A stretch of DNA of 64,000 nucleotides from a virus (lineage: Duplodnaviria; Caudoviricetes), in the IMG/VR virus record IMGVR_UViG_3300037440_000315, positions 36,871 through 100,870 of that record; one strand, given 5' to 3'. The position numbers were made by a program, and so were the translations under genes. The notes below the pieces were generated by a model. That model had not been told where the DNA came from, searched no databases, and saw only the letters and a list, made by a program, of their open reading frames with translations. Position 1 is the first letter of the stretch. Every line of letters starts with the position of its first letter. This document shows, in pieces, positions 3,245 to 29,529 of the stretch.

Positions 3245-6200
3245 CTACTTCTCATTGGTGCCGACGGTCGGCACCACGGCCAACACGGTCGCCGGACGCG
3301 GCGATGCGGCGCGCAGGATCAGCCTCGGGTCAGTCTCATACGTTCCCGGCACCGGCACCGCGACCTGATCCAGCGTTTCATGGATCGTGTCGACATCGAT
3401 CACCTTGCCGTCAATCCGACCGGACAGGCTGTCGAGTTCGCCGGTGTCCTTTGCCCCGAACTGAATGCCGGACTGGTGCGTCTTGTAGAGGATCAGCGAG
3501 GCTTGCGGAACGCGCTTGACCTGGCCCAACGCGCTGCCCATTTCCGCCGCGTAGGCCAATTTGCTCGACTTCCACGTCGCCTTATACGGCAATCCGAGCA
3601 CGCCTTGGCTGACACCATCGGTAAGACCTGATAGCGTCAGATCGCCGCCTGTGTCGAGAGTATAGCGCGTCTGCAATGAGCCGATGCCGGGGGACAGATC
3701 AACGAACGGCGTCGAACCGCTGTCGAGATCGCCCCATGCAACGACTGATTCCCCGCCCAGATGCTCTGCCGCATCGGCGAATGTCAGCGCCTGGCTGGAC
3801 CCAGTTCCGAAGATAACTGCGCAATCCATCAAATAGGACAGCCCTGTGTCACCAAGGCATTCGCTTTCCAAGGCCCACTTTTCGAGGTATCGTTTATGCG
3901 AGCCGTTGATGGTGCGGCGGATGTGATAGTAAACGGCGTCTTCTTCGATGCCGGGAAGCACCATGGCGCGCTCGACGAGCGGAGATGTACCGGTGTCAGA
4001 TTCGAATATCGACCAGGCAATCACTTCCTCGTTGGGCTCGTAAGTTAAAATCCCAACGCGGCCATCGCCCAGCACACAATGAATGCGCGTATCCGGCTGG
4101 CGCTGAACCGCGATCGACACGACGCCAGCCGCGAGAAGATCCGGCACCAGCAGCGTAAGCTCGAAAGCTTCATAATCGGCGAGCGTGTTTTGCGCCGGGC
4201 CGAGTTCGAAAACACGCTGTTTCGATCTCTGCACCATAATGGCGCGGGTATCGAGCGCGACGGCGCGGACGTTTGCCGAGCCTTGCGTCGAGAACGGCAC
4301 GATGCTGGAATTGCTTGGCGTCAAGGGTTCATCAAGCGACGAGGATTTGACCGTCAGTTCCGATCCTGCTGTGCCAACCAGCAGACGCAGCACCGACATG
4401 AGGAAATGGATGTTGTCGACGGGACCGGAGCCAATCGTCCTGATGATCGGCGCGGCATCGCCTTCGACGCTGACATCGAAGTTCTCGAAATCATCCGAGG
4501 CTGACAGGAAGATGCTGCCGCCTTGGGCATGCGCCAGCCGTCCGCCATGCAGGCGGTTTGCGGTCGGGAACCCGCGCGCCTCCGACCAGTGTCCGAACTG
4601 CCAATTATCCGTCATGCCTGTATCGGAGAACCGTGACAGGACTTCGATATCGACATCGGTGTTGGAGTTGTAGCCGGTGATGCGGGCGCGGCCGGTGACG
4701 CTGCCACCGGCATAAGTGAACTCGACAAGCGCAGCGCCGGATGTGTATTCCATCATCCGGGCTCGGTAATGAACCGAGATATTATCTTGCGTATCGTCGA
4801 GATTGGCGCTGAATGTGCCCGTATCGGTGCCCGCTGTGTCACCAGTATCAAGCTGCGTCTGCCCTATATTTTGGGTGATTGGCTTGAAGCCAAAATCCGG
4901 ACCATCGAAAGAACGCTCGATCGCGATGCGCCCAGCATATGCGCCAGTCACGGAGACGGTAATGCGCCGTTCGTTGGATGCGTTGGGAGTTCCCGTATCA
5001 CCAATGCCCGTGACTTCAATCGGGTCCGTCTTAGCATCCAGCGCGCCGAGCGCCCATTCACCGCCTTGACCCTCGTGGAACAACCGCACCAGCGAACCGA
5101 CATGACCGGAACGGAACACCGGGATATCGGAATTCAGCTTGGTGTTGCCGTAAAAATGCGAGACAGAAAGCTTGGCTGATGACGACGGTGACGACAGAAA
5201 TGGCCCATCATCCGGCGCATAATCGACGACTGACCATGACCTGCCGGTGCCGCGGCGCTCGATCTTCTGCGGTCTGACGCCATTGCAGTTTGCAAAGAGC
5301 ACATCGGCCGACTGGTCATAGCGGACATTATCAAGATCGTTTCCCGTCCACGGCGTTCTAACCTCCACCGTGCCGCTGTCGCCGATCGACAGGGAATTGA
5401 CGATGCGATCAATCAAGGCATCGCTTTGAACCGTTACATGGAAATCCGTTGTCGGCGTGAAAGCGAGATTATGGTATCCAGTGCCGAGCGAAGCTTCCGA
5501 GATGTAGTCGTCATCACCGGCTGTTGATCCGACGCGCAGCGTTACCGGTCCGCGCGACACATGGATCGCAAGCGAATGCTCCGTGCCAGTATCAGAAACG
5601 ATCACGCGCTTTTGGTATTTCGCGCGAGCGCCTATCGAGCTTGCGTTAAGAACGAGGGACCCGCCCTGTATTTGAGTCTGAACTGCGCTGACAGCGGTAA
5701 ACATCTCGATTTCGGCGATGTTGAGTTCCGTATCGCCATCGACTGCCGTGAAGAACAGCCGCCAGTGTCGGCGCGCTTCAACCGTTCCGGTATCTGCGCC
5801 GGGAAGGGTAAATGAGCGTCTTTCGCTTGTCGCCCAGCCGGTCTGACCGGAGCGCTCGTCTTCCAGCGTCCACTTTCCAGTGTCGGTTGCGAACGTTCCG
5901 GTATCGAAGTTTCCCGTGATCAGACGCCAGGCGGTTGGCGCATTGTCGAGCCCCCCGGCAAAATCTACGGCACGGATGGAATATGATGTAATGGCTTTCC
6001 TGTCGACGGTATTTGCGCCAGTATCAAAATCAGCATTCCACCAACTTGGAAGCGCATTGCCTCCGGGCCCCCCAGCATTCCCCGTATCCTTCCATTCTGT
6101 GGAGTTGCTGTCATCTGCCGCAAACCAGGCAGGACCGAAGTCTTCCTCTACTGAGGACGTCACTTCCGATGACGCCGTTATCGTCACGCCAGCGGTAGAC

Positions 6201-6640
6201 GGCCCTGTCATCGTGGGAATGACATCCGTGCCATCACCAAATGATATAACCCCGCCAGTCGATCCGTTCACCCACCCGGTATCCGTCAACGCGACCGTCG
6301 TATCGACGGCTGGCCTTCCCAGCAGCGACAGGTCATGCGCATCCGAGCCCTGCCATGAGCGCATTGTTCCAAGGCCGGAACCGGTGTCGTTGGTCAGTTC
6401 GAGAAGGGCAAGATCATCGGCCGAGGCGATGAATTCGAGGAACTCTGCTCCAGAATCGTTAAAAGAAGACCCGATGAACTTCGTGCCAGGACGCAAGGTC
6501 ATCGGACCTTGGGTTTTCGGCAACCAGTTCGTCATGGTTTCCGCGGACAGCCGCGTGCGGTCGAGATCAACGCGCGCAAGCGATTTGGGAGATATGATTC
6601 CGCGCTGGAAGGCCAGCAGAGGGACATTCTGACGCGCCAT
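3245..6640 (-). CDS. Tail tubular protein B / nozzle with inserted discoidin (F5/8C, CBM32-like) domain; 16 DTG motifs
   Basis: N-terminus F.RGIISP...R.DL...NW.P..QG....RPGT and C-terminal GLPY motif typical of podoviral tube B; synteny. Confidence 0.85.
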   Translation of the reverse strand: MARQNVPLLAFQRGIISPKSLARVDLDRTRLSAETMTNWLPKTQGPMTLRPGTKFIGSSFNDSGAEFLEFIASADDLALLELTNDTGSGLGTMRSWQGSDAHDLSLLGRPAVDTTVALTDTGWVNGSTGGVISFGDGTDVIPTMTGPSTAGVTITASSEVTSSVEEDFGPAWFAADDSNSTEWKDTGNAGGPGGNALPSWWNADFDTGANTVDRKAITSYSIRAVDFAGGLDNAPTAWRLITGNFDTGTFATDTGKWTLEDERSGQTGWATSERRSFTLPGADTGTVEARRHWRLFFTAVDGDTELNIAEIEMFTAVSAVQTQIQGGSLVLNASSIGARAKYQKRVIVSDTGTEHSLAIHVSRGPVTLRVGSTAGDDDYISEASLGTGYHNLAFTPTTDFHVTVQSDALIDRIVNSLSIGDSGTVEVRTPWTGNDLDNVRYDQSADVLFANCNGVRPQKIERRGTGRSWSVVDYAPDDGPFLSSPSSSAKLSVSHFYGNTKLNSDIPVFRSGHVGSLVRLFHEGQGGEWALGALDAKTDPIEVTGIGDTGTPNASNERRITVSVTGAYAGRIAIERSFDGPDFGFKPITQNIGQTQLDTGDTAGTDTGTFSANLDDTQDNISVHYRARMMEYTSGAALVEFTYAGGSVTGRARITGYNSNTDVDIEVLSRFSDTGMTDNWQFGHWSEARGFPTANRLHGGRLAHAQGGSIFLSASDDFENFDVSVEGDAAPIIRTIGSGPVDNIHFLMSVLRLLVGTAGSELTVKSSSLDEPLTPSNSSIVPFSTQGSANVRAVALDTRAIMVQRSKQRVFELGPAQNTLADYEAFELTLLVPDLLAAGVVSIAVQRQPDTRIHCVLGDGRVGILTYEPNEEVIAWSIFESDTGTSPLVERAMVLPGIEEDAVYYHIRRTINGSHKRYLEKWALESECLGDTGLSYLMDCAVIFGTGSSQALTFADAAEHLGGESVVAWGDLDSGSTPFVDLSPGIGSLQTRYTLDTGGDLTLSGLTDGVSQGVLGLPYKATWKSSKLAYAAEMGSALGQVKRVPQASLILYKTHQSGIQFGAKDTGELDSLSGRIDGKVIDVDTIHETLDQVAVPVPGTYETDPRLILRAASPRPATVLAVVPTVGTNEK

Positions 6641-6646
6641 GGTGCG

Positions 6647-7294
6647 TTACCCTATCAGGTTTCCGCGTGATCCGCGGTCGCGGCTTCCGCCTGAACTTCC
6701 CCACCGGGCGCGCGTCCAACTGCCGGTCGGCCTGAATTTCGGCTGGGATTCATCCATGGCGTCAATGTTCTTTGCCTCTTTCCGCGCCTTGTCGCGGAGC
6801 TTGCCGATATTTTCCTTGAGCGAATTGTTCTGCGTCAGAGCAAGGCAGACGCGCTCGGCAATCTCAAGCGAAACGAACCGGGAGAACTTTGCCGGCCATC
6901 TTGTCAGATCGAGCCCGAGTCCGGTATCATTCGACACATAGCGGAAATAGAGCGGCGTCACGTCGGCGGACCAGAAATTTGCGTCATCGTAATAGTTGAT
7001 GAGCGGATTGGCGAAATACTCGTCTTCGCTCACCCCCGATGTCCGCACCCAATCCGACGGCTTGGCGAACACCTCCGTGTAGCCGAACTCCGGCGTCACG
7101 CCGGTATCCGCCGCGGCCTTGATGGTCTCCATGGCGAAGTTCCAGTGGCCGGACGCGATGCATTCGGCCACCACATCGCTCCAGACGGCAGTGGTTTCCC
7201 TCGCCGCCTTGATGTCTTCGCCGGTGTCGGTGATGCGCTCATTGCCGAGTTCGACAAGGCTGGCATTGATCACGCCGAGTTTGGTCGCGGCCAC
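6647..7294 (-). CDS. Tail tubular protein A / adaptor (T7 gp11-like); 3 DTG motifs
   Basis: IN.SL.ELG, HWNFA and P.DW.R motifs; directly upstream of tube B. Confidence 0.8.
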   Translation of the reverse strand: MAATKLGVINASLVELGNERITDTGEDIKAARETTAVWSDVVAECIASGHWNFAMETIKAAADTGVTPEFGYTEVFAKPSDWVRTSGVSEDEYFANPLINYYDDANFWSADVTPLYFRYVSNDTGLGLDLTRWPAKFSRFVSLEIAERVCLALTQNNSLKENIGKLRDKARKEAKNIDAMDESQPKFRPTGSWTRARWGSSGGSRDRGSRGNLIG

Positions 7295-7822: not shown

Positions 7823-8092
7823 TTACGGCTGGCCAGTATCGAACCGGACCGTGCCCTGCGTGTCGCCAGTATCCTGCGCCGTGATGAAATAGCCATTCCA
7901 CACCACGTCATTGGTCTGATCGACAACCCTTATCGGATCACCTGGGACAGCCCCGTAATCCGTGGCATTGGTGAAATAGCCGACCGCCTGATAGGCTCCG
8001 ACTGATTCACCGCCAGTATCGATGTACTGGAACTGTCTCGCAGAAACGAGGCCCTGTGAGACGAGGGAAAGTCTTCCGGGATCATAACCCAT
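7823..8092 (-). CDS. Putative capsid decoration/cement protein; 3 DTG motifs
   Basis: 89 aa, beta-rich, between the major capsid gene and the terminator; GGAGG RBS. Confidence 0.6.
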   Translation of the reverse strand: MGYDPGRLSLVSQGLVSARQFQYIDTGGESVGAYQAVGYFTNATDYGAVPGDPIRVVDQTNDVVWNGYFITAQDTGDTQGTVRFDTGQP

Positions 8093-8105: not shown

Positions 8106-8939
8106 TTAGATCGCTGATGCATCGTGCAGGAACTGCACAACGCCGGATTGCTGGAGCATGACCGTGCCAGTGAACGAAGATGCGCGGGCCCAGGAATAGT
8201 CCTGCTCTTCATCATAACCGATCTTGACGTCCAGATTTTCCATATCGAAGGCAGACCCGATGCTATTCTTGTGATAGAAATAGCATTTCTCGGCTGAAGT
8301 CCCTACGCCGGTCAGGTTGGGATGAAAGATCCAGTTAAAGCCAGCCCAGCGCATGACGCGCTTGGAAGGCCCGTTAAGGAATTTCATGTCCACGTAATCG
8401 ACGCTGTCAAACTCCGGGATCTGCATCAGATAACCGCGCACCGCTGGCGTGCAGACGGCGAACATGTTATCTTCTTCTTCGACTGGAACCTCGTTTTCAC
8501 CGAGGGTCGTGAGCGCACTCGCAACGACATTCAGGGACATTGTATCCCCGGTCGACCCGAGATTGTTCGTCGCCGTGTCCAGAATATCGATGATGTCCTG
8601 ATCGAGGCGGCGATTGAGCACCATGCGGGTAGTATCCTGCATGAGCTTGCGCTGGTTGCCCTGGGACTGGAAGATGTTGAACCGCGTCTTGCGGACCAGA
8701 TCGTTCCATTCCTTGACGGTTGCGGTATACTGGGTCATGTCATCGTGGCGAGCCTCGATGAGACCTTCGATGCCGCGAGAACTGGCAGCTGCCCCGCCAG
8801 AACCGGCGACCAGGAACGTCGCCTGATTGCCGCTACGCTGATGTTCGGTTACGGTGGTATGCCGCAACCAGGTTTTCCCCTCTTCAAATGTCGCGATCAA
8901 CTGATCTCGATATTGAATCATCGGGGCTGAGTTAGCCAT
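8106..8939 (-). CDS. Major capsid protein (BPP-1 Bbp17-like)
   Basis: Follows the scaffold gene; R..DQ.II.IL and W.GFNWI motifs; GAGGT RBS. Confidence 0.85.
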   Translation of the reverse strand: MANSAPMIQYRDQLIATFEEGKTWLRHTTVTEHQRSGNQATFLVAGSGGAAASSRGIEGLIEARHDDMTQYTATVKEWNDLVRKTRFNIFQSQGNQRKLMQDTTRMVLNRRLDQDIIDILDTATNNLGSTGDTMSLNVVASALTTLGENEVPVEEEDNMFAVCTPAVRGYLMQIPEFDSVDYVDMKFLNGPSKRVMRWAGFNWIFHPNLTGVGTSAEKCYFYHKNSIGSAFDMENLDVKIGYDEEQDYSWARASSFTGTVMLQQSGVVQFLHDASAI

Positions 8940-10822: not shown

Positions 10823-12478
10823 CTATTGCGCCATAGCCTGCTGAACATTCGCGCCGGCCGTCGCCACCGCATCAACGCCGCGTCCGGCCTGCTCGGCCAC
10901 GCCGCCGGCGGCAGCGATCTCTTCCATCACCTTCGCGGCCTGGGCTTCCTGCTCCATCTGCGCCCGGCGCTCCATGACGGCTTCCTTCGGCTTGAACCAG
11001 TCAGCCTTCCACCCCTTGGAGCGCATGGCGTCCCGAGTGGCCTTCTCCATGTCGACAACTTCGGCCAGAGACGGGTCCATCTGTACCGCCGGAGCCCAGA
11101 TCGTATCGCGGACGTCCAGATAGATATCCGCCTCGTTCTGCTCGGCCAGTTCATCGAGCGGCGAGCGGAACTTGAACTTGATGTCGTGTTCCTGCAAAGC
11201 TTCCGGCATCATGTCGATCGGGAACGCGCCTTCCGCCATCAGCAGGTTGAACACGCCGTCACACAGCGGATGCAGATATTCCTTCTGGATCGGCTTGGAA
11301 ATCGGCGAAGCCGCCCGGATATGCTCCTGGATGCGCCGACGGACTTCCGTTGCCGTCATCTGATGCGTGATTTCAGGAAGCTGGATCTTGTCGAGGAAGA
11401 ACGCGTTGCGAATATCTTCCTTCAGCGCGGTAGCGATCTCCATCCCGATCGGAAACCCGGTTGAGTTCTGGGTGATAGGACGCAGGACTTCGCCGAGACG
11501 CTCGTCATATTCGATGTCGGCGATCGTGATGCCGCCGGGATAGAGCGCAATGTCATTGCGGATCGCGTCGCCGATGGCGATCAGCGGCGGATTGACGTAG
11601 CTTTCGCCGGCCTCGCGCAACGTGCGCATGACGACCTGGATGGTGCGTCCGTCTGGAAGCGCGATATCCGTCACCATCGAGGTGCCGATCGCTGAATTAG
11701 CGGCAGGACGCCAGCGGGGAACTACAAAAGGAAAATAGTTTTGCCCCACTTCCTCAAGGACAGTCTGCGTGTCTCGCTCTACATAAAGCGAGACATAGGG
11801 GTAGCGTCTCCCCAGCTTTGATTTATAATCATAAAGGCGCGCGGGGAGGACAGCGCGTCGGCACGCGAATTCCTTTTCCGGTTCCTTTTCAAGCGCCTTT
11901 TCGACTTCCTTCGAAACCTTGTTCCCGAATTGCTGCTTTAGCTGCCTTGCGGTGGGATTCCAGTTCAGGTGAAAGCAATCAACCTTCCTGTTGGCATTTC
12001 TCGACCATGCGCTGTCCCACAATGGATGGTTCTGGAAGAGTAGTGACGTACCGTCCGAATCCTTCCCGAATTCAATGACGCCATTGCCGAAGGTCACGAA
12101 ATCACGGCTGGTTTCTCCCCTGGCTCCGATCAGATCAGCCACTGGGTCCGTCATCGCCCGCATCTGGATATCGGTGAGTAGTTCGAGAAAGCGGCGATTC
12201 TGATCGTCCTCATCCATATCTTCATCGTCGACATGGATCGAGAAGAACTCGTTCGGGAACAGGAACTCGTCCAGCATATTGCTGAGTTCGCGATGTGCGA
12301 GCACTGGATATGACGAATAAAGGTGTTGTGCGAACTCTTCCCCATCGCCACGCTTTTCGGTAAACTCAGCGCGCTCGGGATCGAAATTCAGCGCCAGCTC
12401 TTGCCACAGCTCATTGACATTGCCGCGGTTGAACTGACGATCCCCAATTTGGAGGACGTCTCTTGCTCTTTGATCCAT
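10823..12478 (-). CDS. Portal protein (head-tail connector)
   Basis: 551 aa; PFVVPRW, I..AFFLD, MTATEV..R and SPL motifs of T7/BPP-1-type connectors. Confidence 0.9.
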   Translation of the reverse strand: MDQRARDVLQIGDRQFNRGNVNELWQELALNFDPERAEFTEKRGDGEEFAQHLYSSYPVLAHRELSNMLDEFLFPNEFFSIHVDDEDMDEDDQNRRFLELLTDIQMRAMTDPVADLIGARGETSRDFVTFGNGVIEFGKDSDGTSLLFQNHPLWDSAWSRNANRKVDCFHLNWNPTARQLKQQFGNKVSKEVEKALEKEPEKEFACRRAVLPARLYDYKSKLGRRYPYVSLYVERDTQTVLEEVGQNYFPFVVPRWRPAANSAIGTSMVTDIALPDGRTIQVVMRTLREAGESYVNPPLIAIGDAIRNDIALYPGGITIADIEYDERLGEVLRPITQNSTGFPIGMEIATALKEDIRNAFFLDKIQLPEITHQMTATEVRRRIQEHIRAASPISKPIQKEYLHPLCDGVFNLLMAEGAFPIDMMPEALQEHDIKFKFRSPLDELAEQNEADIYLDVRDTIWAPAVQMDPSLAEVVDMEKATRDAMRSKGWKADWFKPKEAVMERRAQMEQEAQAAKVMEEIAAAGGVAEQAGRGVDAVATAGANVQQAMAQ

Positions 12479-12685: not shown

Positions 12686-12686
12686 T

Positions 12687-17718: not shown

Positions 17719-17964
17719 CTAGCACTCCCACTCGACAGACATCGCCTCAGTACGCTTGAGGTCATCTCTTTCCTGGTAACATTTCAGAAAAACGATTTTA
17801 CCGTCCGGAGAGACCTTGTTCCGCAGGTTTTCCATTACCTTACGCATCATCAACGGAAGTTCGTCAAACGAGCCAACAGGGCCTGCGCCGCCGTTGTGTT
17901 TCCAAGCATCCAGCGTGCAACTTACTTTCCGACGAACTTTCTGGTCCATGTCACGCAGCCTCAT
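17719..17964 (-). CDS. Hypothetical protein
   Basis: ORF in operon. Confidence 0.45.
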   Translation of the reverse strand: MRLRDMDQKVRRKVSCTLDAWKHNGGAGPVGSFDELPLMMRKVMENLRNKVSPDGKIVFLKCYQERDDLKRTEAMSVEWEC

Positions 17965-18703: not shown

Positions 18704-19365
18704 GCTGCTTTCCTGCGAATGGGTTTAAACAAAGCTTCCTCCAATGGCCACCCGTTGTTCGCCATACGTTGTCGAACAATTTTGTATGGAACATTAGTTT
18801 CAGATCGCTCGACTGCTTCAGACAGCGGCATCTTGTGTCCACTGTATGTTACGATCCTGCAGGATCGCCTATTCAAAGCTTGCTCTTTGGGCGTTGCCCA
18901 GCGGCAATTGCCCGGCTCGTAATTACCGTTGTTGCTCTCACGGTCGATCGTATGCCCAGTTGGGGGATGCCCCATATCCTCAAGAAAGTTCTCATATTTG
19001 TTCCAGCGCTCACAAACTGTGATCCCACGACCACCATAGTCTGGATAATTGGAACTGTTTTCGTTCCGGCACCGTTGGTGCATAGCAGCCCAAACACGAT
19101 ATGCCCTTGATCTTCCTTTCTTCACTGAAGCTTGGCCGTGTTTCGTATGCTGCTCCGAAGAAAATTCGCGTCTATAACAACCACAACTTGTGCTTTTCCC
19201 AAGCTTTAACGGCTGACTTGTCTTGATGGTTTCCTGGCCACAATCACAGCGGCAAAGGTATTGCATCGACCTTTGGCCGCTCGGGTGATACTTAAAGCCT
19301 ACTTCTCGCAAAACGAGCAACCGCCCGAAGCGATCCCCAACTATATCGATACGGCATCCGCTCAT
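18700..19365 (-). CDS. HNH-type homing endonuclease
   Basis: G.RFGRL.V, C.CDCG, SCGC, YGGRGI.VCERW, TIDR..NNGNYEP.NCRWAT. Confidence 0.85.
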   Translation of the reverse strand: MSGCRIDIVGDRFGRLLVLREVGFKYHPSGQRSMQYLCRCDCGQETIKTSQPLKLGKSTSCGCYRREFSSEQHTKHGQASVKKGRSRAYRVWAAMHQRCRNENSSNYPDYGGRGITVCERWNKYENFLEDMGHPPTGHTIDRESNNGNYEPGNCRWATPKEQALNRRSCRIVTYSGHKMPLSEAVERSETNVPYKIVRQRMANNGWPLEEALFKPIRRKAA

Positions 19366-20111
19366 TTGTAAAATTCTTCCACCCAATTATGGGATTGACG
19401 CACTTCACCTTGGTCGGGCATTCTGTCGCCCGGAAACACCACGATCTTCGCATTCTCCGGAAGCTCTGATGGCACGCCACCGTCTGGCTTGCCGTCAAAC
19501 AGCCTGCCAGCACCGTAGATGCCGTGTTCTGCCGTCCAGTGCGGCTCATCCCATCCCAGCCTTTCGCTGATCCACGCCTGTTCCATGCCGCCGAAACGGC
19601 GATTGGCGAGGCCGGGCGTGACGGCAGGGTCGAACTCGGTGTATAGGTAGCTGTGTACGCCTGCGTCGAATAGCTGGATCGAGCCCTGATAGAATGCGCG
19701 TCGACCGCTCGGCTGAAAATTCGGATTGCGGTACATGACATTCGGCTCATCGCGCCCGAATATGTCATCGACATTGCCGGTGATGACGATATCAAGATCG
19801 AGCAAGGCGATGCGTCGGCCGAGTATCCCGCCGATGTCCGGACGCCGCGCCATCAGTTTTACCGCACATGTTCCGGGGACATGTTTCGATTTGTCCAAAG
19901 GAACGCAGCGGATGCCTTCCTTGGCGAGCGTTTCGGCAGCTTCGCGGCTGTCGGTGATGACGACGAATTCGAAATCAAGTGACGTATTTCGCTTCAGCAT
20001 GTTCCGAAGGATGATCGGATGCTGAGTTGTGAACTTGTAGCTGCGGCGGCGGGCCGGATCTTGCCACAGAAACGCAGCGAACGTGATAAAATCGTTTTTC
20101 ATTGGCATCAA
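19362..20111 (-). CDS. GT-A fold glycosyltransferase (paralog 1)
   Basis: FVVITD, LLDLDIVITGNVD (DxD), EQAWIS, IVVFPG. Confidence 0.8.
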   Translation of the reverse strand: MMPMKNDFITFAAFLWQDPARRRSYKFTTQHPIILRNMLKRNTSLDFEFVVITDSREAAETLAKEGIRCVPLDKSKHVPGTCAVKLMARRPDIGGILGRRIALLDLDIVITGNVDDIFGRDEPNVMYRNPNFQPSGRRAFYQGSIQLFDAGVHSYLYTEFDPAVTPGLANRRFGGMEQAWISERLGWDEPHWTAEHGIYGAGRLFDGKPDGGVPSELPENAKIVVFPGDRMPDQGEVRQSHNWVEEFYK

Positions 20112-20520: not shown

Positions 20521-21333
20521 CTAAGTCCACGTACCAAATCTGCGTTTCTGATCTGGATGGCTGTGGAGCGAGACCCCCTGCCATTGCTTTCTTGGGTAAT
20601 ACCTCTCAAGCCATGGGTTGGCTTCTCGTACAACGGGATTTTCCGGCTTGCCTTCACTACCAGGCGTGGTAACGAGCTTGGCATTGTCCGGCAGATCGCC
20701 CCAGATGCCTGTCTCGGGCTCGCCTGGGCGGGCTATGCGGTAGATGCCGTGGGAGGCGTCGAAGTAAGGCATGTGCGGACCCAGATAGCTCGACAGCCAA
20801 GTCTGATCATCCTTCAATACAGGGTGAGCAGGTTGCTCGGCAACATGTGCAACATATTCGGTCCATGTCCAATCAGCGCTTCCGCACCTATGCAGCACGA
20901 ACGATCCATTGTAATATGGCCTCTGCGGGACAGACGGATTATCCCACGGCACCCGCGCCGGATTGCGCCAGAGCACGATAGGCTCATCTCGCATCACGAC
21001 GTCATCGAAATTGCGGATGACGAGCGTGTCGAGATCCATCTGAAACACGCGGTCCACGCCGAAAATCTCACGGCCATTCGGATGGAACGTCATCAGCCGG
21101 CAAACGCAGTGCCCGGCATCCATCGGGATCGTGTCGTCGATCGGGATTGCCCGTATCTCTGTATCGCCGTCAAACGCTTCAGGACGGTCCGTAACGCAGA
21201 TGAAGCTGTGCGGCACCGTCAGATTGGCTTTCACCGCTCTCGCAAGCTTCCTGACGTCTTCAGGCGTATAGGGAGCAGCAAGCTTGCTGTTGGCGTCGGG
21301 ACTCCACAGGTACGTGATAACCGCAAGGCTCAC
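20521..21333 (-). CDS. GT-A fold glycosyltransferase (paralog 2)
   Basis: FICVTD, QMDLDTLV (DxD), YNGS, DDQTWLS. Confidence 0.8.
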   Translation of the reverse strand: MSLAVITYLWSPDANSKLAAPYTPEDVRKLARAVKANLTVPHSFICVTDRPEAFDGDTEIRAIPIDDTIPMDAGHCVCRLMTFHPNGREIFGVDRVFQMDLDTLVIRNFDDVVMRDEPIVLWRNPARVPWDNPSVPQRPYYNGSFVLHRCGSADWTWTEYVAHVAEQPAHPVLKDDQTWLSSYLGPHMPYFDASHGIYRIARPGEPETGIWGDLPDNAKLVTTPGSEGKPENPVVREANPWLERYYPRKQWQGVSLHSHPDQKRRFGTWT

Positions 21334-22190
21334 TGCCGATTCTCCCCGATCAGGATTTCATTCTCATCCATAAGGATGGTGAAACCTGCCTGTTCAAGGA
21401 TGGTTCGGCATTCAGGACCGGGACATTTGCCGTTACGCTCGGGACCAACGCGGATGCTGACATAGCGGGTGCGTTTCAGGGTCTCGGTGGCGCCGAGGAG
21501 CACTTCAGGTTCTGCGCCTTCGGCATCGCCGACGATCAAAGAGATCAGCGAGTCTCGATCGTAAGGCGCAAGCATATCGATGCGGCGTGATGCAACGCTG
21601 ATTACGTCATCAGACGCATTGATCGCCGACGTATCGCCCTTCTCGGTTGCGATATACAAATCAATGTTGCCGTCTTCACGCCACGCAACGACTGGAGCAA
21701 TATCGATTCTGCGCCCCTGTGCATTTGCACTCAGCGCCGGTAAAACATTAGGATCAGGCTCGATCGCCAACACACTTGCGCCCTTGCGATTGAGCGCGAG
21801 CGCAACTTCACCGATATTGGCTCCAAAATTGATGACGCGATCGCCGTCCGAAACTTCGATCAGCCCGTTGCCGAGATAGTCCCGCAGAAGAACGTTGAAT
21901 CGGTGGTCTACGCCGCGGTAAAGATAATGGCAAATGCGCCAGTTGTTCGCGCAAGCGATCCGGTCCTTGCCGTCATGGAACCAGATGATGCCGGCTGCCG
22001 GATCTTGCCCGATGCAATATACGCCTTCGTCTTTAGCCAGCGTTTCATTGCGCCAATGGACGCGGTGAACGACTTTGACGCCGGTCTCCGGGAACCAGCC
22101 GTCATTGCGGAAAGGCTGCGGTGACGTTTCGTGCAGGATGCTGACCGTCAGATGACGGGTTTCCGGTTTATACACTAGCAATGGCTGCAT
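21330..22190 (-). CDS. FkbM-family methyltransferase
   Basis: INFGANIGE, AIEPD, DAEGAEPEVL.GA. Confidence 0.8.
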   Translation of the reverse strand: MQPLLVYKPETRHLTVSILHETSPQPFRNDGWFPETGVKVVHRVHWRNETLAKDEGVYCIGQDPAAGIIWFHDGKDRIACANNWRICHYLYRGVDHRFNVLLRDYLGNGLIEVSDGDRVINFGANIGEVALALNRKGASVLAIEPDPNVLPALSANAQGRRIDIAPVVAWREDGNIDLYIATEKGDTSAINASDDVISVASRRIDMLAPYDRDSLISLIVGDAEGAEPEVLLGATETLKRTRYVSIRVGPERNGKCPGPECRTILEQAGFTILMDENEILIGENRQ

Positions 22191-22933
22191 CAGCTATTCC
22201 TCGACTTGGCGATCAGGGTGCAGAACCCTTGATCGCCACGATGAATGATGTCGAAACCAGCCGCGTGCAAGATGATCTCACAAGCTTCCATAGTCCGCTC
22301 ACCATCACGTTCGGCACTGGCGCAAAGGCTGACATAATCGGTGATCTTGAGTGTTTCCGCAGCGCCTTCCAGAACTTCTGGCTCCGCGCCCTCGGCATCG
22401 CCGACGATCAGGCGAACATGGTCAATTTCATACTCACGGGCGAGCGTATCGATCCGGCGCGCCGGGAAAGTCATGCGACCCTCTATGCGCTTTTGAGCGG
22501 GCTGAAATACCGACGTATCGCCGCTTGCCGTCGCCAGATACATTTCGAGTTCGCCGTCCTGTTTCCAGGCTGCGACTGGCTCGACCCAAATATTGCGCCC
22601 ATCAGCGTTCGCCTTCAGAGCCGGGAGAACATGACTGTCCGGCTCAATCGCGAGAACCTTGGCCCCCCGCCATTCAAGGCAGACCGCGACTTCGCCGATG
22701 TTAGCGCCGATGTTGATGACGCAATCGTCAGGACTTATCGAAACCCTGCCCTGAAGGTAGCGATAAGTCAGCCCTACAAGGCGGTGGCGAATGCCATGGC
22801 GAAAGAACCGTTGACCACGCTCCGGTACGGCGACAGCCATGCGGTTGACGCCATCCTCAAACCAGAAAACCGATCCTTCGAACCAGAAAACCGGTCCGTC
22901 GCTTGCGTCAAGATGTGGCTGTAATTGCTGCAT
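22190..22933 (-). CDS. FkbM-family methyltransferase (paralog)
   Basis: INIGANIGE, AIEPD, DAEGAEPEVLEGA. Confidence 0.8.
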   Translation of the reverse strand: MQQLQPHLDASDGPVFWFEGSVFWFEDGVNRMAVAVPERGQRFFRHGIRHRLVGLTYRYLQGRVSISPDDCVINIGANIGEVAVCLEWRGAKVLAIEPDSHVLPALKANADGRNIWVEPVAAWKQDGELEMYLATASGDTSVFQPAQKRIEGRMTFPARRIDTLAREYEIDHVRLIVGDAEGAEPEVLEGAAETLKITDYVSLCASAERDGERTMEACEIILHAAGFDIIHRGDQGFCTLIAKSRNS

Positions 22934-23468
22934 CGGCCGTTAAACCTGCATTATAACGCTTTCTAAACTCAGAGCATGCTGCTTTAATATCGCCTTGAGC
23001 GCCTATGCGTTCGCAAAACTCGGGGAACTGCCGCACGGCTGCATCGATATCAATGCACATGTGCTCTTTGTCGCGCAGGTAATGTTTGATATTTTCATTC
23101 ATCACGCCAATCATATCCAGCATTGTTAAGTCCAGGTCAGCTCTGGGCTTCCCAAGCATGCCGACCCAGAATCCTCCCATGCCCTGCCCATGTCGATCAA
23201 ACTTGTTGACATAGCTGCCAGCGACCAGTTCTGGACTGCGCGTCAAATGCACATAGAACGCTTTCTTGCCGTACAGATTCTCCAGTGGTCCAAGATACCA
23301 CGTGAGACGAAAGTCAACCTCAATATGCCGATCCGGAAAAGCTAACCTTTCGTCGGCAAAATGCCGATATTTGCTCTCATGCCCGGTCGTATAATTCGAC
23401 AGATGCTCACAAGCTTTCGAGAACGTCACTGAGCCGCACCGTCCGGTGCAAAGGACAAAAATGTTCAA
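22908..23468 (-). CDS. Sulfotransferase-like protein
   Basis: IFVLCTGRCGS (5'-PSB-like) and YVHLTR.P..V..S (3'-PB-like); TTG start at 23468 after GGAGG. Confidence 0.65.
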   Translation of the reverse strand: MNIFVLCTGRCGSVTFSKACEHLSNYTTGHESKYRHFADERLAFPDRHIEVDFRLTWYLGPLENLYGKKAFYVHLTRSPELVAGSYVNKFDRHGQGMGGFWVGMLGKPRADLDLTMLDMIGVMNENIKHYLRDKEHMCIDIDAAVRQFPEFCERIGAQGDIKAACSEFRKRYNAGLTADAAITATS

Positions 23469-24238
23469 ACTACCTCCGATGCCGGTGCGCCAAGCCTTTC
23501 GCCGTCGCGACCCGTATGCGGAAAATGCTCCCTTATCCAAGGATTTCTCTGTTGAATCTCAGCCTGCCATGCCTTGCGCTGGTCGCCGGGCGTGAAGACG
23601 ATCTTGGCGTTCTCAGGCAAGTCGCCGTCGACACCGCTGCCTGGAACGTAAGGAATGGCCAGACGATAAACGCCGTCTCGCTCGCCATCCCAGTACGGCA
23701 TGTCGGGTCCGAGCGCGTCGGAGATCAGCCACTGGTCATCCTTGGCCTGTTTCGGCGTCACGTCAGGATCGAATTCCGTATAGAAATGCTCCAGCGTCCC
23801 GGTCTTGTAGAGGAACATCGACAGATTGTACCAGCATGGGCCGCCCGGCTGATTGTAGGGCACGCGCCGGGGATTGCGCCAGAGCACCATATCCTCGTCG
23901 CGATCGACGATGGAATCCATGTTGCGGACGATCAGCATGTCGATGTCCACCTGCAGGATGCGCTCGCCGAACAGATCCTTTGCCTGCGGGCTGAAGGTCA
24001 TCAGGCGGCAATAGCAGCGACCGGGGATGTGCGTGGTCATGTCAAGTTCGACGGCGCGGATCTTCGGCTCGTTGGCAAACAAATCCGTCCGGTTTGTGAT
24101 GCAGACGAATTCATGCGGGACAGTCAGATGCTTTTCGAACATCGCCTGCAGGATGCGTGCGTCGTCAAGACCATAGATGTATTTGTCGTTGTGCTTGCCG
24201 TTCGGCTCTTGCCAAGCGTAAGTGACTACGGATAACAT
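23465..24238 (-). CDS. GT-A fold glycosyltransferase (paralog 3)
   Basis: FVCITN, QVDIDMLI (DxD), YNLS, DDQWLIS. Confidence 0.8.
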   Translation of the reverse strand: MLSVVTYAWQEPNGKHNDKYIYGLDDARILQAMFEKHLTVPHEFVCITNRTDLFANEPKIRAVELDMTTHIPGRCYCRLMTFSPQAKDLFGERILQVDIDMLIVRNMDSIVDRDEDMVLWRNPRRVPYNQPGGPCWYNLSMFLYKTGTLEHFYTEFDPDVTPKQAKDDQWLISDALGPDMPYWDGERDGVYRLAIPYVPGSGVDGDLPENAKIVFTPGDQRKAWQAEIQQRNPWIREHFPHTGRDGERLGAPASEVV

Positions 24239-24296: not shown

Positions 24297-25454
24297 TCAA
24301 GCGCATTCCCAGATTTCAGGCTGATTTTGCCCAACTATCTGCTTCTCGAAACAGGAAAGCGCGCGGGCGACCGCCTGATCCATGTTGTAATAGCTGTAGT
24401 CGGCGAGCCGCCCGGCAAAAATGACATCAGACCGCCGCGCCGCCATCACTTCGTATTTCCGGAACACGCCGCGGTTTTCTTCCCGTGGAACCGGATAGTA
24501 AGGTTCGTTGACGCCAGGCCGATAGTCTTCCGGGTATTCAAAAACCTGCGTCGTAAAGTCGACGTCGTCCTGGCCGGTCAGCCAGCGGAATTCGGTCGAT
24601 CGTGTGTACGGATGCATTGCGGCCGGCGTCGGGTAGTTCTCGACTGCGCTCCCTTGGACCGGCTTGTCCGACGGCCTGGATATGAACTCGAACCGGATGC
24701 TGCGATAAGGCAGCGCCCCGTGTTCATAGCCGAAAAATTCGTCGATCGGACCTGTGTAGATTATCCGCTCGAATTCTTCGCTTCCGTCGATTTCGCCGAA
24801 GCTTGCGCCTGTCTGGACTTCAATGAGCGGATGATCCAGCATTCGCGCAAAGAGCGCCGCATAGCCATCGCGCGGCATGATCTGGAACCGGTCCTGAAAA
24901 TACCGGTCATCTCGGGACAGATGCACCGGAACCCTTGCCGAGACCGAGGCGTCAAGATCTTCCGGCCGGACGCCCCATTGTTTGACCGTATAGTGCAGGA
25001 AGACTTTTTCGTAGACGAGATCGGCAATCTGCCGGGTCTCCTGCGAAGATGACTCCCGCATCTTGAGGATCGGAACCTTGCTTTCAGCTCCGAATTCGCC
25101 GATGAGACATTCATTCAGATGCGGCGCCTGCTGGCCGAACACCATCTCCATCGACGTGAGATTGAACGGCAGCGGTACGAACTGGCCGTCGACCCAGCCC
25201 GTCACCCGGTGCTCGTAGGGCCGCCACTCGGCGAACTGGCTCAGATACTCAACGATCCTCGGCGAATTGGTATGGAAGATATGCGGTCCATAGCGATGGA
25301 CGAGAACGCCATGCTCATCGTGATGGTCATAGGCATTGCCGCCGGTGTGATCCCGCCGGTCGATGACCAGAACGCGCCGCCCGAGTTGAGACGCGATCCG
25401 CTCCGCTATCGTCGCGCCAGTGAAGCCAGCCCCGACAACCAGAAAGCGCCGCAT
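24297..25454 (-). CDS. glf: UDP-galactopyranose mutase
   Basis: VVGAGFTGA FAD motif, GGNAYD, HRYGPHIFHT, YT.KQWG, EPYYP, GRLADYSYYNMDQ. Confidence 0.95.
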   Translation of the reverse strand: MRRFLVVGAGFTGATIAERIASQLGRRVLVIDRRDHTGGNAYDHHDEHGVLVHRYGPHIFHTNSPRIVEYLSQFAEWRPYEHRVTGWVDGQFVPLPFNLTSMEMVFGQQAPHLNECLIGEFGAESKVPILKMRESSSQETRQIADLVYEKVFLHYTVKQWGVRPEDLDASVSARVPVHLSRDDRYFQDRFQIMPRDGYAALFARMLDHPLIEVQTGASFGEIDGSEEFERIIYTGPIDEFFGYEHGALPYRSIRFEFISRPSDKPVQGSAVENYPTPAAMHPYTRSTEFRWLTGQDDVDFTTQVFEYPEDYRPGVNEPYYPVPREENRGVFRKYEVMAARRSDVIFAGRLADYSYYNMDQAVARALSCFEKQIVGQNQPEIWECA

Positions 25455-25468: not shown

Positions 25469-26146
25469 TCAGAACACTTCCGGATCGTCATGAAGCAGCA
25501 TGCTTTCCGGCGCCACCTTGACCTTGATGCCGCGCCGGATCGCCTCTTCAAGAAAATACTGCGTCGATGGACGCTGCAACTGATACTCGTGTTTGTCGCC
25601 TCTTTGCAAGATGCCGTATAATGCAATCTCGGGGATACCCTGCTTCTCGCATTCCGTGATCGCGAGCGCCAGCATGAAGGCGATCGAGGATTTGAACTGC
25701 GAACGATGGAACTTGCCCGGCGTGAACTCGATTTTGCCGTCCTTGCGGATGACCTTGCGACCGCGCATTTCTTCATCCGGGTACGGCACGGCAGTAGGAA
25801 ACAGCGGCGTGCCGTTCTCCATCCGCATCCGCATCGCGATCAGATCGCGCATGTAGACGACGGGAATGTTTTTCAGCCAGTCGTAATAGGCGTATGGCAG
25901 GGTCTTATCGAATGCGGGCGTATGGCAGACAAACCACCCGTCAGCCCGTGGGATGGCTTGTGCGTGCTCTGCATGGCCATAGGGTGAGTTGTCCGGGGAG
26001 CAGGCCCAGATCCGCCAGTCCTTGTTTGCGAACGGCGCTGTCTTGACAGTGACAGGATGGCTTCCGCATATGGCTATCCCCTGCACGGAAACGGCCGGGA
26101 CGATTGTCTCGTCACCGGCCGGCAGATCGGTTACTTTTTGAAGCAT
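25469..26146 (-). CDS. Putative Maf/DUF115/sialyltransferase-like glycosyltransferase
   Basis: IAICGS...IWAC N-terminus and SSIAFMLALA....G..EIALYGI C-terminus resemble the Maf/GT29/GT42-type fold. Confidence 0.5.
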   Translation of the reverse strand: MLQKVTDLPAGDETIVPAVSVQGIAICGSHPVTVKTAPFANKDWRIWACSPDNSPYGHAEHAQAIPRADGWFVCHTPAFDKTLPYAYYDWLKNIPVVYMRDLIAMRMRMENGTPLFPTAVPYPDEEMRGRKVIRKDGKIEFTPGKFHRSQFKSSIAFMLALAITECEKQGIPEIALYGILQRGDKHEYQLQRPSTQYFLEEAIRRGIKVKVAPESMLLHDDPEVF

Positions 26147-26160
26147 TACTATCCCTTGGC

Positions 26161-27015
26161 TTAATCGCCCGTGTCACGCGAGGCGGAAACATTGATCCAA
26201 TCCAGATCAACATTCACCGCATTGGATTCGGATTTGAACGCAGCAACGACGGGAACCATTGCGCGAGCAGCCGGGACCGGATTGGAAAGCGAGCCCTTGA
26301 GAATACCGCCCTGGTAAAAATACGCTATATCGCCATCTTCACCAGCGCCGGTGTCGCCGAAGACGATCTCCAGAACTTCGTAGACATTATCGGTCGGCGT
26401 AGCGCCAGCAACCGGCGTAGCGACGGTATCGGCGTTGACCGCCACGCCGCGCCATGCCGTCGAAGGCGAGCCAGCGCCGCCGGCGTACAGGAACCCAACC
26501 GCGCTGCTCGACAATGCAACCGGAACGCCGGCATCGTCACCAGTGTCATACATCGGCATCTGGCTCGCGCCTGTGTCGGCAAAGCCGGCGAACACATTGG
26601 CCCCGGTCAGATCATCGATCTTGATCCTTGCCGCAAAGCGAAGATTGCCCTGCTTGGCCTTCCACTGCGGGAACAGTCCGGTATTGATGAGCCCGTGGTT
26701 TAATGGAATCGGAGCCGAGTTAGCCACGAAAGCAAGCCGGAAGATGCCGTTCGTGCCCGCCGCGACTACGCCGCTGATATCGGCCGCGCCGGTGTCGTTC
26801 TCAGCGAAGTTCCAGCTATCATCGACGAGATCGCCGAGGAAGTCGTCAAAGACCGCCGGGCGCGCCGGATTGCCGGGGAGAACGATGTTGCCGCCCTTGT
26901 TGCCGATCGATTTCTGGCCGCCGGCGACAAAGCCGCCCCTTGCCACCAGAGCGTTTTCGTTCGTATCATAAACATCCTGTCCGTGGATGCTATGGCGTTT
27001 TGTAAGTCTAGCCAT
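26161..27015 (-). CDS. DTG-rich beta-sandwich protein, putative virion surface (lectin-like) protein; 5 DTG
   Basis: Gly/Ala/Asp-rich, beta-strand pattern, FDDF...VDLDWI ends. Confidence 0.6.
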   Translation of the reverse strand: MARLTKRHSIHGQDVYDTNENALVARGGFVAGGQKSIGNKGGNIVLPGNPARPAVFDDFLGDLVDDSWNFAENDTGAADISGVVAAGTNGIFRLAFVANSAPIPLNHGLINTGLFPQWKAKQGNLRFAARIKIDDLTGANVFAGFADTGASQMPMYDTGDDAGVPVALSSSAVGFLYAGGAGSPSTAWRGVAVNADTVATPVAGATPTDNVYEVLEIVFGDTGAGEDGDIAYFYQGGILKGSLSNPVPAARAMVPVVAAFKSESNAVNVDLDWINVSASRDTGD

Positions 27016-27045
27016 TGGTTTGTAGCCTCTGCTTATGGTTTTGGA

Positions 27046-27684
27046 TTACTGAGGGTAGAAAACGCCAACTGTCGGCCCGGGCGAGCCGAATTCTGCTTCA
27101 TGGGCGGGGCCAGACGGGCCGCCTGCTTCCATGATTTTTTGATCAAGCCATCCGTAGCGTTCGAGCAGTTCGGGCTCGTCGGAGAAACGATGGTTCGGGA
27201 ATGTCTCGATCGCTACGATGCGACCCGGCGACGGTGCGCCATGGTCAAGCCTGCGCATGTCGTGGATGAAACCGACCTTCACATGCGGGAGCCTGAAGCA
27301 TTCCCTGATGAGATCGATCGCGACAAAGCCCTTCGGACCATCGCAGAGAACGGCCGTGGCGCTCGGGCTGGCTTTCGCCGCAAGTTCTGGTAAAAGCTGG
27401 CGGGCGTCGCCGTGATGCAGCCTGACATTCGGCCAGACGCCTGCACGCTGAATTCCGAACCGGGCGTCTTGATCATCGCGCAGCTCGATCGAATGGATCT
27501 CGACATGCGGGAGATACTTCGCCAGCATGTAAGTCGATTGCGCGCGGGCGCGGCCGGATTCGATGAACGTCTCTATTCCAAGATCAAGGCACGTCTCGAT
27601 GATCAGCGCCATTTCGGAATGGTTGACGCCGCGGTGCTCATAGGGCTCGGCGGCGATACGCGACAGATCCAATCGGTGCGTCAT
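27046..27684 (-). CDS. Class I SAM-dependent methyltransferase (Methyltransf_24-like)
   Basis: FIESGRARAQST, IHSIEL, HGDA, LCDGPK, FIHD. Confidence 0.7.
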   Translation of the reverse strand: MTHRLDLSRIAAEPYEHRGVNHSEMALIIETCLDLGIETFIESGRARAQSTYMLAKYLPHVEIHSIELRDDQDARFGIQRAGVWPNVRLHHGDARQLLPELAAKASPSATAVLCDGPKGFVAIDLIRECFRLPHVKVGFIHDMRRLDHGAPSPGRIVAIETFPNHRFSDEPELLERYGWLDQKIMEAGGPSGPAHEAEFGSPGPTVGVFYPQ

Positions 27685-28103: not shown

Positions 28104-28104
28104 T

Positions 28105-28296
28105 TTAGTAACCTTCTGCGATGGTGCGGGGGCGCTTGCCGGACCTTCCGGTATTGCCGAGCGCGATGGCGATGGCTTGCCGGTTCGCGGTCGCCTTGCC
28201 GTGTTTTGCTTTGGTTTTCGCATACTGCTTTCCGTCGTGGAACTCACTGATGTTGGTCGCGACCATTTCTTTACTCGCTCCGCGCTTCAATGGCAT
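28105..28296 (-). CDS. Small basic phage protein
   Basis: MPLK.G.S....NI.E...QAIAIAL pattern common in phage late regions; GGAGG RBS. Confidence 0.6.
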   Translation of the reverse strand: MPLKRGASKEMVATNISEFHDGKQYAKTKAKHGKATANRQAIAIALGNTGRSGKRPRTIAEGY

Positions 28297-28401
28297 GGGT
28301 TATATCCTCCGTGGCCCACTTCATGCGCCGCTGGATTTGAGATTGCGTCGTTATAGAGGAGCAGCTAAAGTTGATCTTGGCATATTGATGGGGGATTTCA
28401 G

Positions 28402-29106
28402 ATGAAAAACATTCCAGTCTATTTAATTAATCTTGATGCTGACAGAGACCGTCTTGAATTCATGGATAGTCAGTTCAAAGAACTTGGCATTGCGTATGAG
28501 CGGTTCCCGGCAATACGTGGCAAAGACCTGCCGCATTGGCTATCGCCATATTTCACCGGCTCTGACCTGAGCCGAGGCGAGATCGGCTGCTACGCAAGCC
28601 ACCTCAACGTCATGAGACAGGTTGAATTGAGCGGCAAGCCGGGGCTGATCTTTGAAGACGACGAACGGATCAAGCCGGAATTCCCCGGTCTGCTGGAAGA
28701 AATCCTCAGTCTCGATCTGCCTTTCGATATTCTGCGGATAAGCTCTATCCGCAAGAAACGCATTATTCTCACTCAGGCTGAACTGTCTGGCGGCTATAAG
28801 ATCGTCCGCTATTTGCGTATCCCCATGAATATGGGGGCTTACCTGATCACGCCTGCGGGTGCACGACGGTTCATCGGATGGAAGACGCAGCGCACGGCCC
28901 CTATTGATTTCGACATGGCCAGAGTTTGGGAGCACAAGGTCAGAACGCTTGGCGTCTGGCCGGAGCCGGTTCTGCATAATGTGCTGGCGTCATCATCCAT
29001 CGATGCAATCCAGCCCCGTCATGAACTCTGGAAAGGCGGCAGAATCAAAAAGCTCGTCGATTCCATCAACCGATTATCCTACGCAATGACCGCACTAAAG
29101 CCCTGA
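28402..29106 (+). CDS. Glycosyltransferase family 25
   Basis: YLINLD....R, FPAI.G, GEIGCYASH, IFEDD, AYLIT..GA. Confidence 0.9.
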   Translation: MKNIPVYLINLDADRDRLEFMDSQFKELGIAYERFPAIRGKDLPHWLSPYFTGSDLSRGEIGCYASHLNVMRQVELSGKPGLIFEDDERIKPEFPGLLEEILSLDLPFDILRISSIRKKRIILTQAELSGGYKIVRYLRIPMNMGAYLITPAGARRFIGWKTQRTAPIDFDMARVWEHKVRTLGVWPEPVLHNVLASSSIDAIQPRHELWKGGRIKKLVDSINRLSYAMTALKP

Positions 29107-29529
29107 AGTCCCGCCGACAGCGCCGTGATAGACCTGCAGTTCACCGGCAATCAGTCCGGTGTCCCCGGCGGTAAAACGGGCTGTCAGTGAATCTCCGCAT
29201 CCGTAGACTGGCGTTGGCAAGACTGGCGTGCCGGTATCTCTTGCATCTTCCGCACCGCTTACATCGTGTGTAAACTGACGTGGAACGCGGGTAATATCAT
29301 TCCCGAGCACGAGGCTGCCTTCAGACCAGACGATCTGAGCCAGTCCGGTGTCAATCGGGCGTTTCCCGAGAAACAACGTCAGCGTGCCGATATTAGCCGG
29401 CCCGGTGTCCTGCGCGGTGGGTATCCAGCGCACCTGATCGATCGAACCGAATACCGGCTCGCGTCCAGTGTCGGTCAGCGCGGCGGAACCGTCGCCGTCA
29501 AATCTGAGAATGGTCTTGCGGATGGTCAT
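29095..29529 (-). CDS. DTG-rich small beta protein, putative virion surface protein; 5 DTG
   Basis: 144 aa, beta-rich, five DTG motifs. Confidence 0.6.
   Translation of the reverse strand: MTIRKTILRFDGDGSAALTDTGREPVFGSIDQVRWIPTAQDTGPANIGTLTLFLGKRPIDTGLAQIVWSEGSLVLGNDITRVPRQFTHDVSGAEDARDTGTPVLPTPVYGCGDSLTARFTAGDTGLIAGELQVYHGAVGGTSGL

Follow-up and report, generated by a model that had tools for sequence, protein, structure and literature searches.

This report concerns the tripeptide Asp-Thr-Gly (DTG) in the virion proteins of an uncultured podovirus with a T7-type tail and a genome of 100.9 kb, together with a group of enzyme genes which accompanies it. The stretch of DNA analysed, referred to here as the window, is 64,000 nucleotides long. 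It covers bases 36871-100870 of one virus record (IMGVR_UViG_3300037440_000315; 100,870 bp), which CheckV rates as complete. DTG is the top tripeptide of the whole proteome and is almost confined to six proteins. Among relatives, it is depleted from the remaining proteins and is inherited together with a small gene cassette which includes a predicted glycosyltransferase (GT). An original prediction, made from the letters of the sequence, had proposed a phage-encoded O-glycosylation system for the virion. We consider it fairly probable that D-(T/S)-G serves as an acceptor signal at which the phage cassette O-glycosylates outer virion proteins in the cytoplasm, with strain-specific tailoring. 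The more ambitious proposal is that a strict D-(T/S)-G code directs the phage's own cytoplasmic glycosyltransferases to virion loops and has been purged from its other proteins, and that this is the first sequon-directed O-glycosylation in a phage, with a new sequon and a new reader family. Here we see the balance as even.

The DTG motif and the proteins that carry it

The proteome (31,161 amino acids, aa) contains 42 copies of DTG. Six proteins, in which about 2 copies would be expected, hold 41 of these. Five are encoded in the window:

3245-6640, minus strand: tail nozzle (tail tubular protein B), 1131 aa, 16 DTG and 3 Asp-Ser-Gly (DSG); phrog_376, E 1e-117
6647-7294, minus strand: tail adaptor (tail tubular protein A), 215 aa, 3 DTG; phrog_394, E 7e-33
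7823-8092, minus strand: 89-aa protein encoded after the major capsid gene, 3 DTG, one of them 2 residues from the C-terminus
26161-27015, minus strand: 284-aa protein heading the enzyme cluster, 5 DTG, the last of them one residue from the C-terminus
29095-29529, minus strand: 144-aa protein, 5 DTG
Genome 22449-23864 (outside the window), minus strand: fibre-like protein, 471 aa, 9 DTG and 2 DSG

The 42nd copy is in a 3446-aa giant open reading frame (ORF; genome 26483-36823, minus strand) which lies just before the start of the window and follows the small internal virion proteins; it presumably encodes an internal or ejection protein.

The five window ORFs carry 32 DTG (16 + 3 + 3 + 5 + 5) in 1863 aa, and both the DTG and DSG counts and the coordinates of the original prediction proved exact. 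The remaining window ORFs (~95) carry none. As claimed earlier, the motif is restricted; it occurs in virion proteins of outer or fibre-like type and in two proteins encoded within the enzyme cluster. Composition predicts 0.90, 0.09, 0.13, 0.16 and 0.22 copies for the five proteins, a sum of 1.5. In 5000 shuffles of each, the maxima were 7, 3, 2, 3 and 3 for the 1131-, 215-, 89-, 284- and 144-aa proteins, respectively; the observed number was never reached in four of the five, and for the tail adaptor the highest shuffle count was 3, as many as were observed. At the codon level Asp is written in both ways and every Thr and Gly variant occurs, and the other frames and strands contain only a background of 2-12 DTG per frame. 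The constraint therefore acts on the peptide, as had been proposed, and a DNA-level motif or a frame artefact can be ruled out.

Substitution by other residues is rare at all three positions. Of the 54 D-T-x tripeptides, 41 end in Gly (A 2, I 2, T 1, V 1; no residue other than Gly more than twice), the central residue of D-x-G is Thr in 41 cases, Ser in 5 and Phe in 3, and x-T-G begins with Asp in 41 of 62 cases, any other residue being found at most 4 times. No flanking position is constrained and the copies share no context. A repeated domain was considered as the origin of the nozzle copies and rejected, since their flanks are unrelated.

The 89-, 144-, 284- and 471-aa proteins have no family match. 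The N-termini of the first three lack a hydrophobic signal-like stretch, as judged by eye rather than with a predictor. The 89-aa protein is a possible head- or tail-associated decoration.

Distribution of the motif among relatives

The 120 closest nozzle homologues (55-100% identity) contain 10-22 DTG each. Among the best 150 nozzle representatives (50% clustering) the counts are bimodal, either 7-18 or 0-2, even at equal identity to the query. Overall, more than 130 nozzle homologues from independent metagenomes carry 7-22 copies and all others 0-2. In a tree of 144 nozzles the DTG-positive state forms one clade, with a single change and a support of 100. An equal DTG density in homologues from phages lacking the GT genes had been named beforehand as a refutation of the original prediction; such homologues have 0-2 DTG versus 10-22, and the prediction passed this test. 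An IMG/VR search for the deep DTG-positive branch (P0131) and its DTG-negative sister (P0128) gave no match, and a metagenome scan found the deep DTG-positive branch on short contigs only.

The genome comparison included five DTG-positive genomes (this phage and G004, G008, G009 and G010) and three DTG-negative ones, including G001 and G002. Coordinates of loci were obtained by tblastn and DTG was checked by six-frame counts. The DTG-positive genomes measure 55-101 kb, and in all five of them DTG falls almost entirely within the same five or six classes of protein. The four additional genomes measure 55, 80, 83 and 94 kb; their nozzles carry 13-20 DTG and their adaptors 3, as in this phage, and the three adaptor sites are kept at 60% identity. 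They encode fibre-like proteins with 13 and 35 DTG and small proteins of 92-130 aa with 3-5 DTG. Counterparts of the 89-aa protein, identified by position, are present in all four (88-105 aa, 3 DTG), and homologues of the 284-aa protein (284-353 aa, 4-10 DTG) adjoin the p225 gene (see below) in G004, G009 and G010. The three DTG-negative relatives have 2-5 scattered DTG; one is a complete 56.7-kb genome whose terL, the large terminase gene, is 76% identical to that of the window.

The densest DTG array encountered is that of a 923-aa fibre-like protein (G008:C1:1-2772, L123) with 35 copies. Here DTG heads recurring modules of 14-22 residues such as DTG-L-R-x-A-I, DTG-A-I-A-x-A-V-W and DTG-V-N-x-R-L. 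Some DTG-positive nozzle homologues (P0015, P0017, P0048, P0052 and others) have a length of 1260-1350 aa and include an extra Laminin_G_3 (PF13385) or F5/8 type C (PF00754) domain, modules of a carbohydrate-binding type which are here fused to the nozzle.

Conservation, loop placement and depletion elsewhere

In 33 DTG-positive nozzle sequences, approximately 17 core sites are occupied in most members and some 75 additional columns sporadically. Conservation of the motif residues is 0.73, compared with 0.44 for the flanks (within 5 residues) and 0.56 protein-wide, and DTG and DSG interchange at the same column.

The AF2 (AlphaFold2) model of the nozzle has a pLDDT of 89.8, and its best Foldseek matches are podovirus nozzles (Carin-1, LME-1, T7 gp12; 8ck1). 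All 19 DTG/DSG sites fall in loops of this confident model, in which 46% of residues are in helices or strands (binomial p about 1e-5), the placement that the original prediction had led one to expect. Eleven of the 19 lie within clade-specific insertions which DTG-negative homologues lack. The remaining eight sites correspond, in those homologues, to a mixture of small or polar residues such as NAA, DLG, DQN, AAG and GTL, which indicates that the fold does not require DTG.

When the proteins with 0-2 DTG each are pooled from the five DTG-positive genomes, they contain 9 copies versus 25.3 expected by composition (P 2e-4), an approximately 3-fold depletion. The three DTG-negative genomes contain 11 versus 12.9 expected, with no depletion, and permuted tripeptides are not depleted. 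Enrichment in the targets together with avoidance elsewhere fits a trans-acting reader which sees all phage proteins rather than a fold-specific structural motif.

The associated enzyme cassette

Comparison of all ORFs of the genome with the four other DTG-positive and the three DTG-negative genomes identified only four families present in all of the former and in none of the latter: p171, p211, MT250 and GT249. Among metagenome loci which reach upstream of terL, cassette genes are found in 4 of 4 DTG-positive and 0 of 21 DTG-negative cases. The genomes are highly mosaic, terL included; the cassette nevertheless stays with the DTG-bearing tail genes. The terL gene of this phage is 76% and 72% identical to those of the DTG-negative G001 and G002 and only ~50% identical to those of the DTG-positive G008 and G009, and the nozzle shows the opposite pattern.

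In every DTG-positive genome, DTG-rich genes lie in or at the head of the cassette. For this phage the arrangement is as originally described, and the block, located upstream of the small terminase gene terS on the same (late) strand as the virion genes, holds a UDP-galactopyranose mutase gene (glf), two FkbM methyltransferase genes, two further genes resembling S-adenosylmethionine (SAM) methyltransferases and three GT-A paralogues:

16656-17171, minus strand: p171, core protein of 171 aa, from a viral family without annotation
17083-17718, minus strand: p211, core P-loop kinase/NTPase-like protein with an N-terminal Walker A motif GxxGxGKS and 60 invariant columns
17951-18703, minus strand: MT250, core class I SAM methyltransferase; Pfam Methyltransf_25, E 1.5e-11
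19362-20111, minus strand: GT249, predicted core glycosyltransferase with a DxD motif; phrog_1962, E 5e-8
20521-21333, minus strand: GT270, GT-A paralogue, 33% identical to GT249 and sharing the DxD motif; phrog_1962, E 0.005
21330-22190 and 22190-22933, minus strand: two FkbM methyltransferases; Pfam Methyltransf_21, E 1.5e-9 and 6.9e-12
23465-24238, minus strand: GT257, GT-A paralogue, 37% identical to GT249; phrog_1962, E 2e-5
24297-25454, minus strand: Glf, UDP-galactopyranose mutase; PF03275 (GLF), E 4.5e-63, profile positions 1-203 of 203, and PF13450 (NAD_binding_8), E 4e-19
25469-26146, minus strand: p225, enzyme-like protein of 225 aa, encoded beside the 284-aa DTG protein
27046-27684, minus strand: MT212, candidate methyltransferase; Methyltransf_24, E 0.0012, under the curated cut-off

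The GT249 family has 1-3 paralogues per DTG-positive genome. GT249 itself has no Pfam or NCBIfam match at E 0.01 and no membership of a curated GT family. Residues D105 and D107 are invariant in 39 homologues, and a profile search against PDB retrieved glycogenin (GT8) at E 0.04 over 140 aa. The AF2 model, built with the 39 homologues (pLDDT 91.5, pTM 0.90), matches GT6/GT8 enzymes in Foldseek with a probability of 1.0 and TM scores of 0.55-0.62 (BoGT6a, the ABO transferases, glycogenin and LARGE1). On this model GT249 is a retaining GT-A glycosyltransferase with a DxD motif, and fold and motif together support the glycosyltransferase assignments of the original prediction.

As to the other core proteins, each of the four further DTG-positive genomes encodes MT250 homologues of 40-43% identity, and the DTG-negative genomes encode none. 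Only weak matches were obtained for p211, to AAA_18 and adenylate-kinase-like models, and none to a protein-kinase family. The p171 gene lies directly upstream of terL in G004 and L027.

Several genes are more variable. Glf is full length, with a GLF domain and an N-terminal FAD/NAD(P)-binding Rossmann domain, and has no homologue in G004, G008, G009 or G010. The FkbM genes occur elsewhere only in G008, G010 and near relatives, and MT212 has 61% identical homologues in G010, L027, L096 and L106. The Glf and methyltransferase genes behind the proposal of a galactofuranose (Galf)-containing, methylated glycan are present here; with Glf missing from the four other DTG-positive genomes and FkbM variable, Galf and much of the methylation would be strain-specific tailoring, not core. 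The possible sulfation which had also been put forward was not borne out: the P-loop protein matches generic kinase/NTPase models only, and there is no sulfotransferase signal.

The p225 gene is present in every DTG-positive genome (36-45% identity). We considered p225 as a Maf/MptE-like (DUF115, PF01973) initiating transferase and rejected this: the Atlas lead scored only 0.83, with no support from the PDB profile search or Pfam, and comparison with the MptE-like family of the siphovirus loci described below gave an hhalign probability of 2.7%. Distant p225 homologues occupy the small-terminase slot directly upstream of terL in DTG-negative phages (L010:9274-9768, plus strand; G001:29233-29727) and have conserved Cys, Ser, His, Asp and Glu columns which give them an enzyme-like look.

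An HNH endonuclease gene (18700-19386, minus strand; phrog_374, E 1e-66) lies between MT250 and GT249. Relatives have HNH genes elsewhere in the cassette (L102, and L103 with three), and these differing positions suggest that the block has been repeatedly invaded by homing endonucleases.

A homologous cassette of GT-A, methyltransferase, P-loop and p171 genes also occurs in an unrelated siphovirus lineage with an HK97-type terL, portal and capsid and a tape measure gene:

L113:5680-9763
L108:9292-11896
L109 (= G006):5615-8712

There it is located directly after the capsid gene, which points again to virion proteins as substrates, and is preceded by a weakly MptE-like protein. In mycobacteriophages, the genes for virion glycosylation have a comparable location (PMC11600133).

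Proposed modification and alternative explanations

In the mechanism we propose for this large podovirus clade, D-(T>S)-G would mark surface loops and repeat units in the nozzle, the adaptor, the fibre-like proteins and the small head- or tail-associated proteins, and would be read in the host cytoplasm during late infection by the phage cassette. The latter would comprise one to three retaining GT-A glycosyltransferases, a SAM methyltransferase, the P-loop kinase-like protein and p171. The sugar would most likely be joined to the hydroxyl of Thr or Ser, and elongation and capping of the glycan would follow through strain-specific genes, which in this phage may be Glf, as provider of the galactofuranose donor, the two extra GT paralogues and the FkbM methyltransferases.

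Several observations weigh against glycosylation as the explanation, the main caveat being the siphovirus lineage: no DTG excess was found in 40 kb of G006, so the cassette alone does not imply DTG. A search for a second sequon in this lineage turned up no enriched tripeptide. DTG is also absent from the major capsid protein, the most exposed of all; of the glycan coat on capsid and tail which had been envisaged, a coat on the capsid would be possible only via the small 89-aa protein. The loop placement is read from a model of the nozzle protein rather than of the assembled tail. In fibre-like proteins, DTG starts tandem modules every 11-22 residues, which could mean a structural role. The DTG trait has a single origin on the nozzle tree, and its co-occurrence with the cassette consequently counts as one evolutionary event, though one kept through mosaicism. 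Homologues of p225 (28-29% identity) lie beside terL in the DTG-negative G001 and G002. Finally, the modification is proposed from sequences and models, and the reader of the acceptor is taken to be the cassette as a whole.

Some of these points bear on the possibility that DTG is a structural or binding motif (a turn former, repeat cap, metal ligand or docking site for a chaperone or partner) and that the cassette is unrelated to it, acting for example on host surface glycans or DNA. This would explain why DTG heads regular modules in the fibre-like proteins and why the siphovirus lineage has the cassette without DTG, and the nozzle sites all fall in loops, a setting in which Asp and Gly are frequent in any case. 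We nevertheless regard this as unlikely. It would require one strict tripeptide without shared flanks in at least five unrelated folds, whose homologous loops in DTG-negative relatives are filled by assorted residues, and a motif bound to a fold would not be 3-fold depleted elsewhere in DTG-positive genomes only. As to the cassette, two unrelated phage lineages have it within the block of late structural genes, which argues for a role in the virion. DNA hypermodification was rejected on this ground and because no ThyA-like hydroxymethylase to feed it is encoded in the complete genome, although the latter is weak negative evidence.

A modification of DTG other than a glycan on Thr appears somewhat less probable still. 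This could be phosphorylation, a phospho-linked attachment begun by the P-loop protein, or another group, with the glycosyltransferases acting later or elsewhere. Both p211 and the methyltransferase track the DTG trait as strictly as the GT does, the interchange of Thr and Ser would suit any hydroxyl-directed chemistry, and depletion from non-targets any trans-acting reader. However, the matches of p211 are to generic small-molecule kinase/NTPase models and not to a protein-kinase family, and one to three glycosyltransferases, accompanied here by Glf and FkbM, make up a typical glycan-building set. Chance, composition, a DNA-level signal or an annotation artefact can be dismissed, with 32 copies observed against ~1.5 expected, varied codons, a trait repeated in more than 130 homologues and no point in favour.

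Relation to known glycosylation systems

Virion glycosylation by phage-encoded GTs is known for mycobacteriophages (Freeman et al. 2023, as summarised in PMC11600133). As far as that summary describes it, their system resembles the one proposed here in that tandem phage-encoded GT genes lie next to a methyltransferase gene within the structural block, and the enzymes act in the cytoplasm on virion targets; here, three GT-A paralogues and several methyltransferases are encoded between the DTG-rich genes and terS/terL on the late strand. The same summary concerns actinobacterial siphoviruses in which capsid and tail tube are the targets, whereas the present phages are podoviruses with T7-type tails and without a siphovirus-type tail tube, in which the nozzle, adaptor, fibre-like and small proteins carry the motif and the major capsid protein has none. 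The P-loop protein and p171 are additional core genes here. The likeness is one of logic and gene placement. To our knowledge no strict three-residue sequon has been described for mycobacteriophage virion glycosylation.

The original prediction drew on the O-glycosylation sequon of Bacteroidota, given there as D-(S/T)-X. The published sequon is D-(S/T)-(A/I/L/V/M/T), which excludes Gly (PMC8550257; PMC12871550). The parallel holds for the length of three residues and for Asp directly before Ser/Thr (Asp being found in 41 of 62 x-T-G here), and fails at the third residue, which is Gly in 41 of 54 cases in this phage, the six residues accepted in Bacteroidota together accounting for 6. Moreover, the Bacteroidota system acts on exported proteins in the periplasm, whereas here the enzymes are phage-encoded and the proteins would assemble in the cytoplasm. 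With Gly excluded and a periplasmic site of action, the Bacteroidota sequon is an analogy only.

Enzymes which are soluble, depend on nucleotide sugars and act on proteins in the cytoplasm, at a short motif or a defined residue, are represented by the HMW1C-type N-glycosyltransferases and by glycogenin. The former are cytoplasmic GT41 enzymes which recognise N-X-S/T; they have a GT-B fold and are N-linking, unlike GT249 with its predicted GT-A fold. Glycogenin is a protein-priming GT8 enzyme which modifies its own Tyr; the GT249 fold is near to it, with the marginal sequence similarity given above. Full-text literature searches brought up no account of a DTG sequon or of phage glycosylation directed by a sequon.

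Genome context and relatives

The other principal virion and packaging genes of the window are the following:

8106-8939: major capsid protein, 0 DTG
10823-12478: portal
12687-14252, minus strand: terL
14252-14806: terS

The gene call at 28248-29094 is ambiguous: a 234-aa ORF on the plus strand (28402-29106) overlaps a 145-aa ORF on the minus strand (28540-28977), and neither has homologues or family matches.

The INPHARED collection contains no near-identical phage, and relatives there, for example pelagiphages, are all below 30% identity. In metagenomes the family is very large. The sole host hint for the phage group is a DTG-negative relative (L122; nozzle 45% and capsid 55% identical) in a metagenome-assembled genome (MAG) of the alphaproteobacterium Bauldia sp. 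(JANQRX010000003.1:71638-94514). It is probably a prophage and sits within a 574-kb bacterial contig.

Implications

If the proposed reading is true, phage virion glycosylation, so far shown for mycobacteriophages, would also occur in environmental podoviruses, across a widespread clade which numbers hundreds to thousands of members and has strain-variable glycans. Such a coat of sugar on the tail may serve in adsorption, in protection from proteases or host defences, or in stickiness in soil or water, and immune evasion is possible. A sequon for O-glycosylation which is compact and portable, combined with enzymes which are soluble and of phage size, would also be of use in glyco-engineering. 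More generally, enrichment of a motif in its targets together with depletion elsewhere would provide a computational signature for sequon-type modification systems in uncultured viruses.

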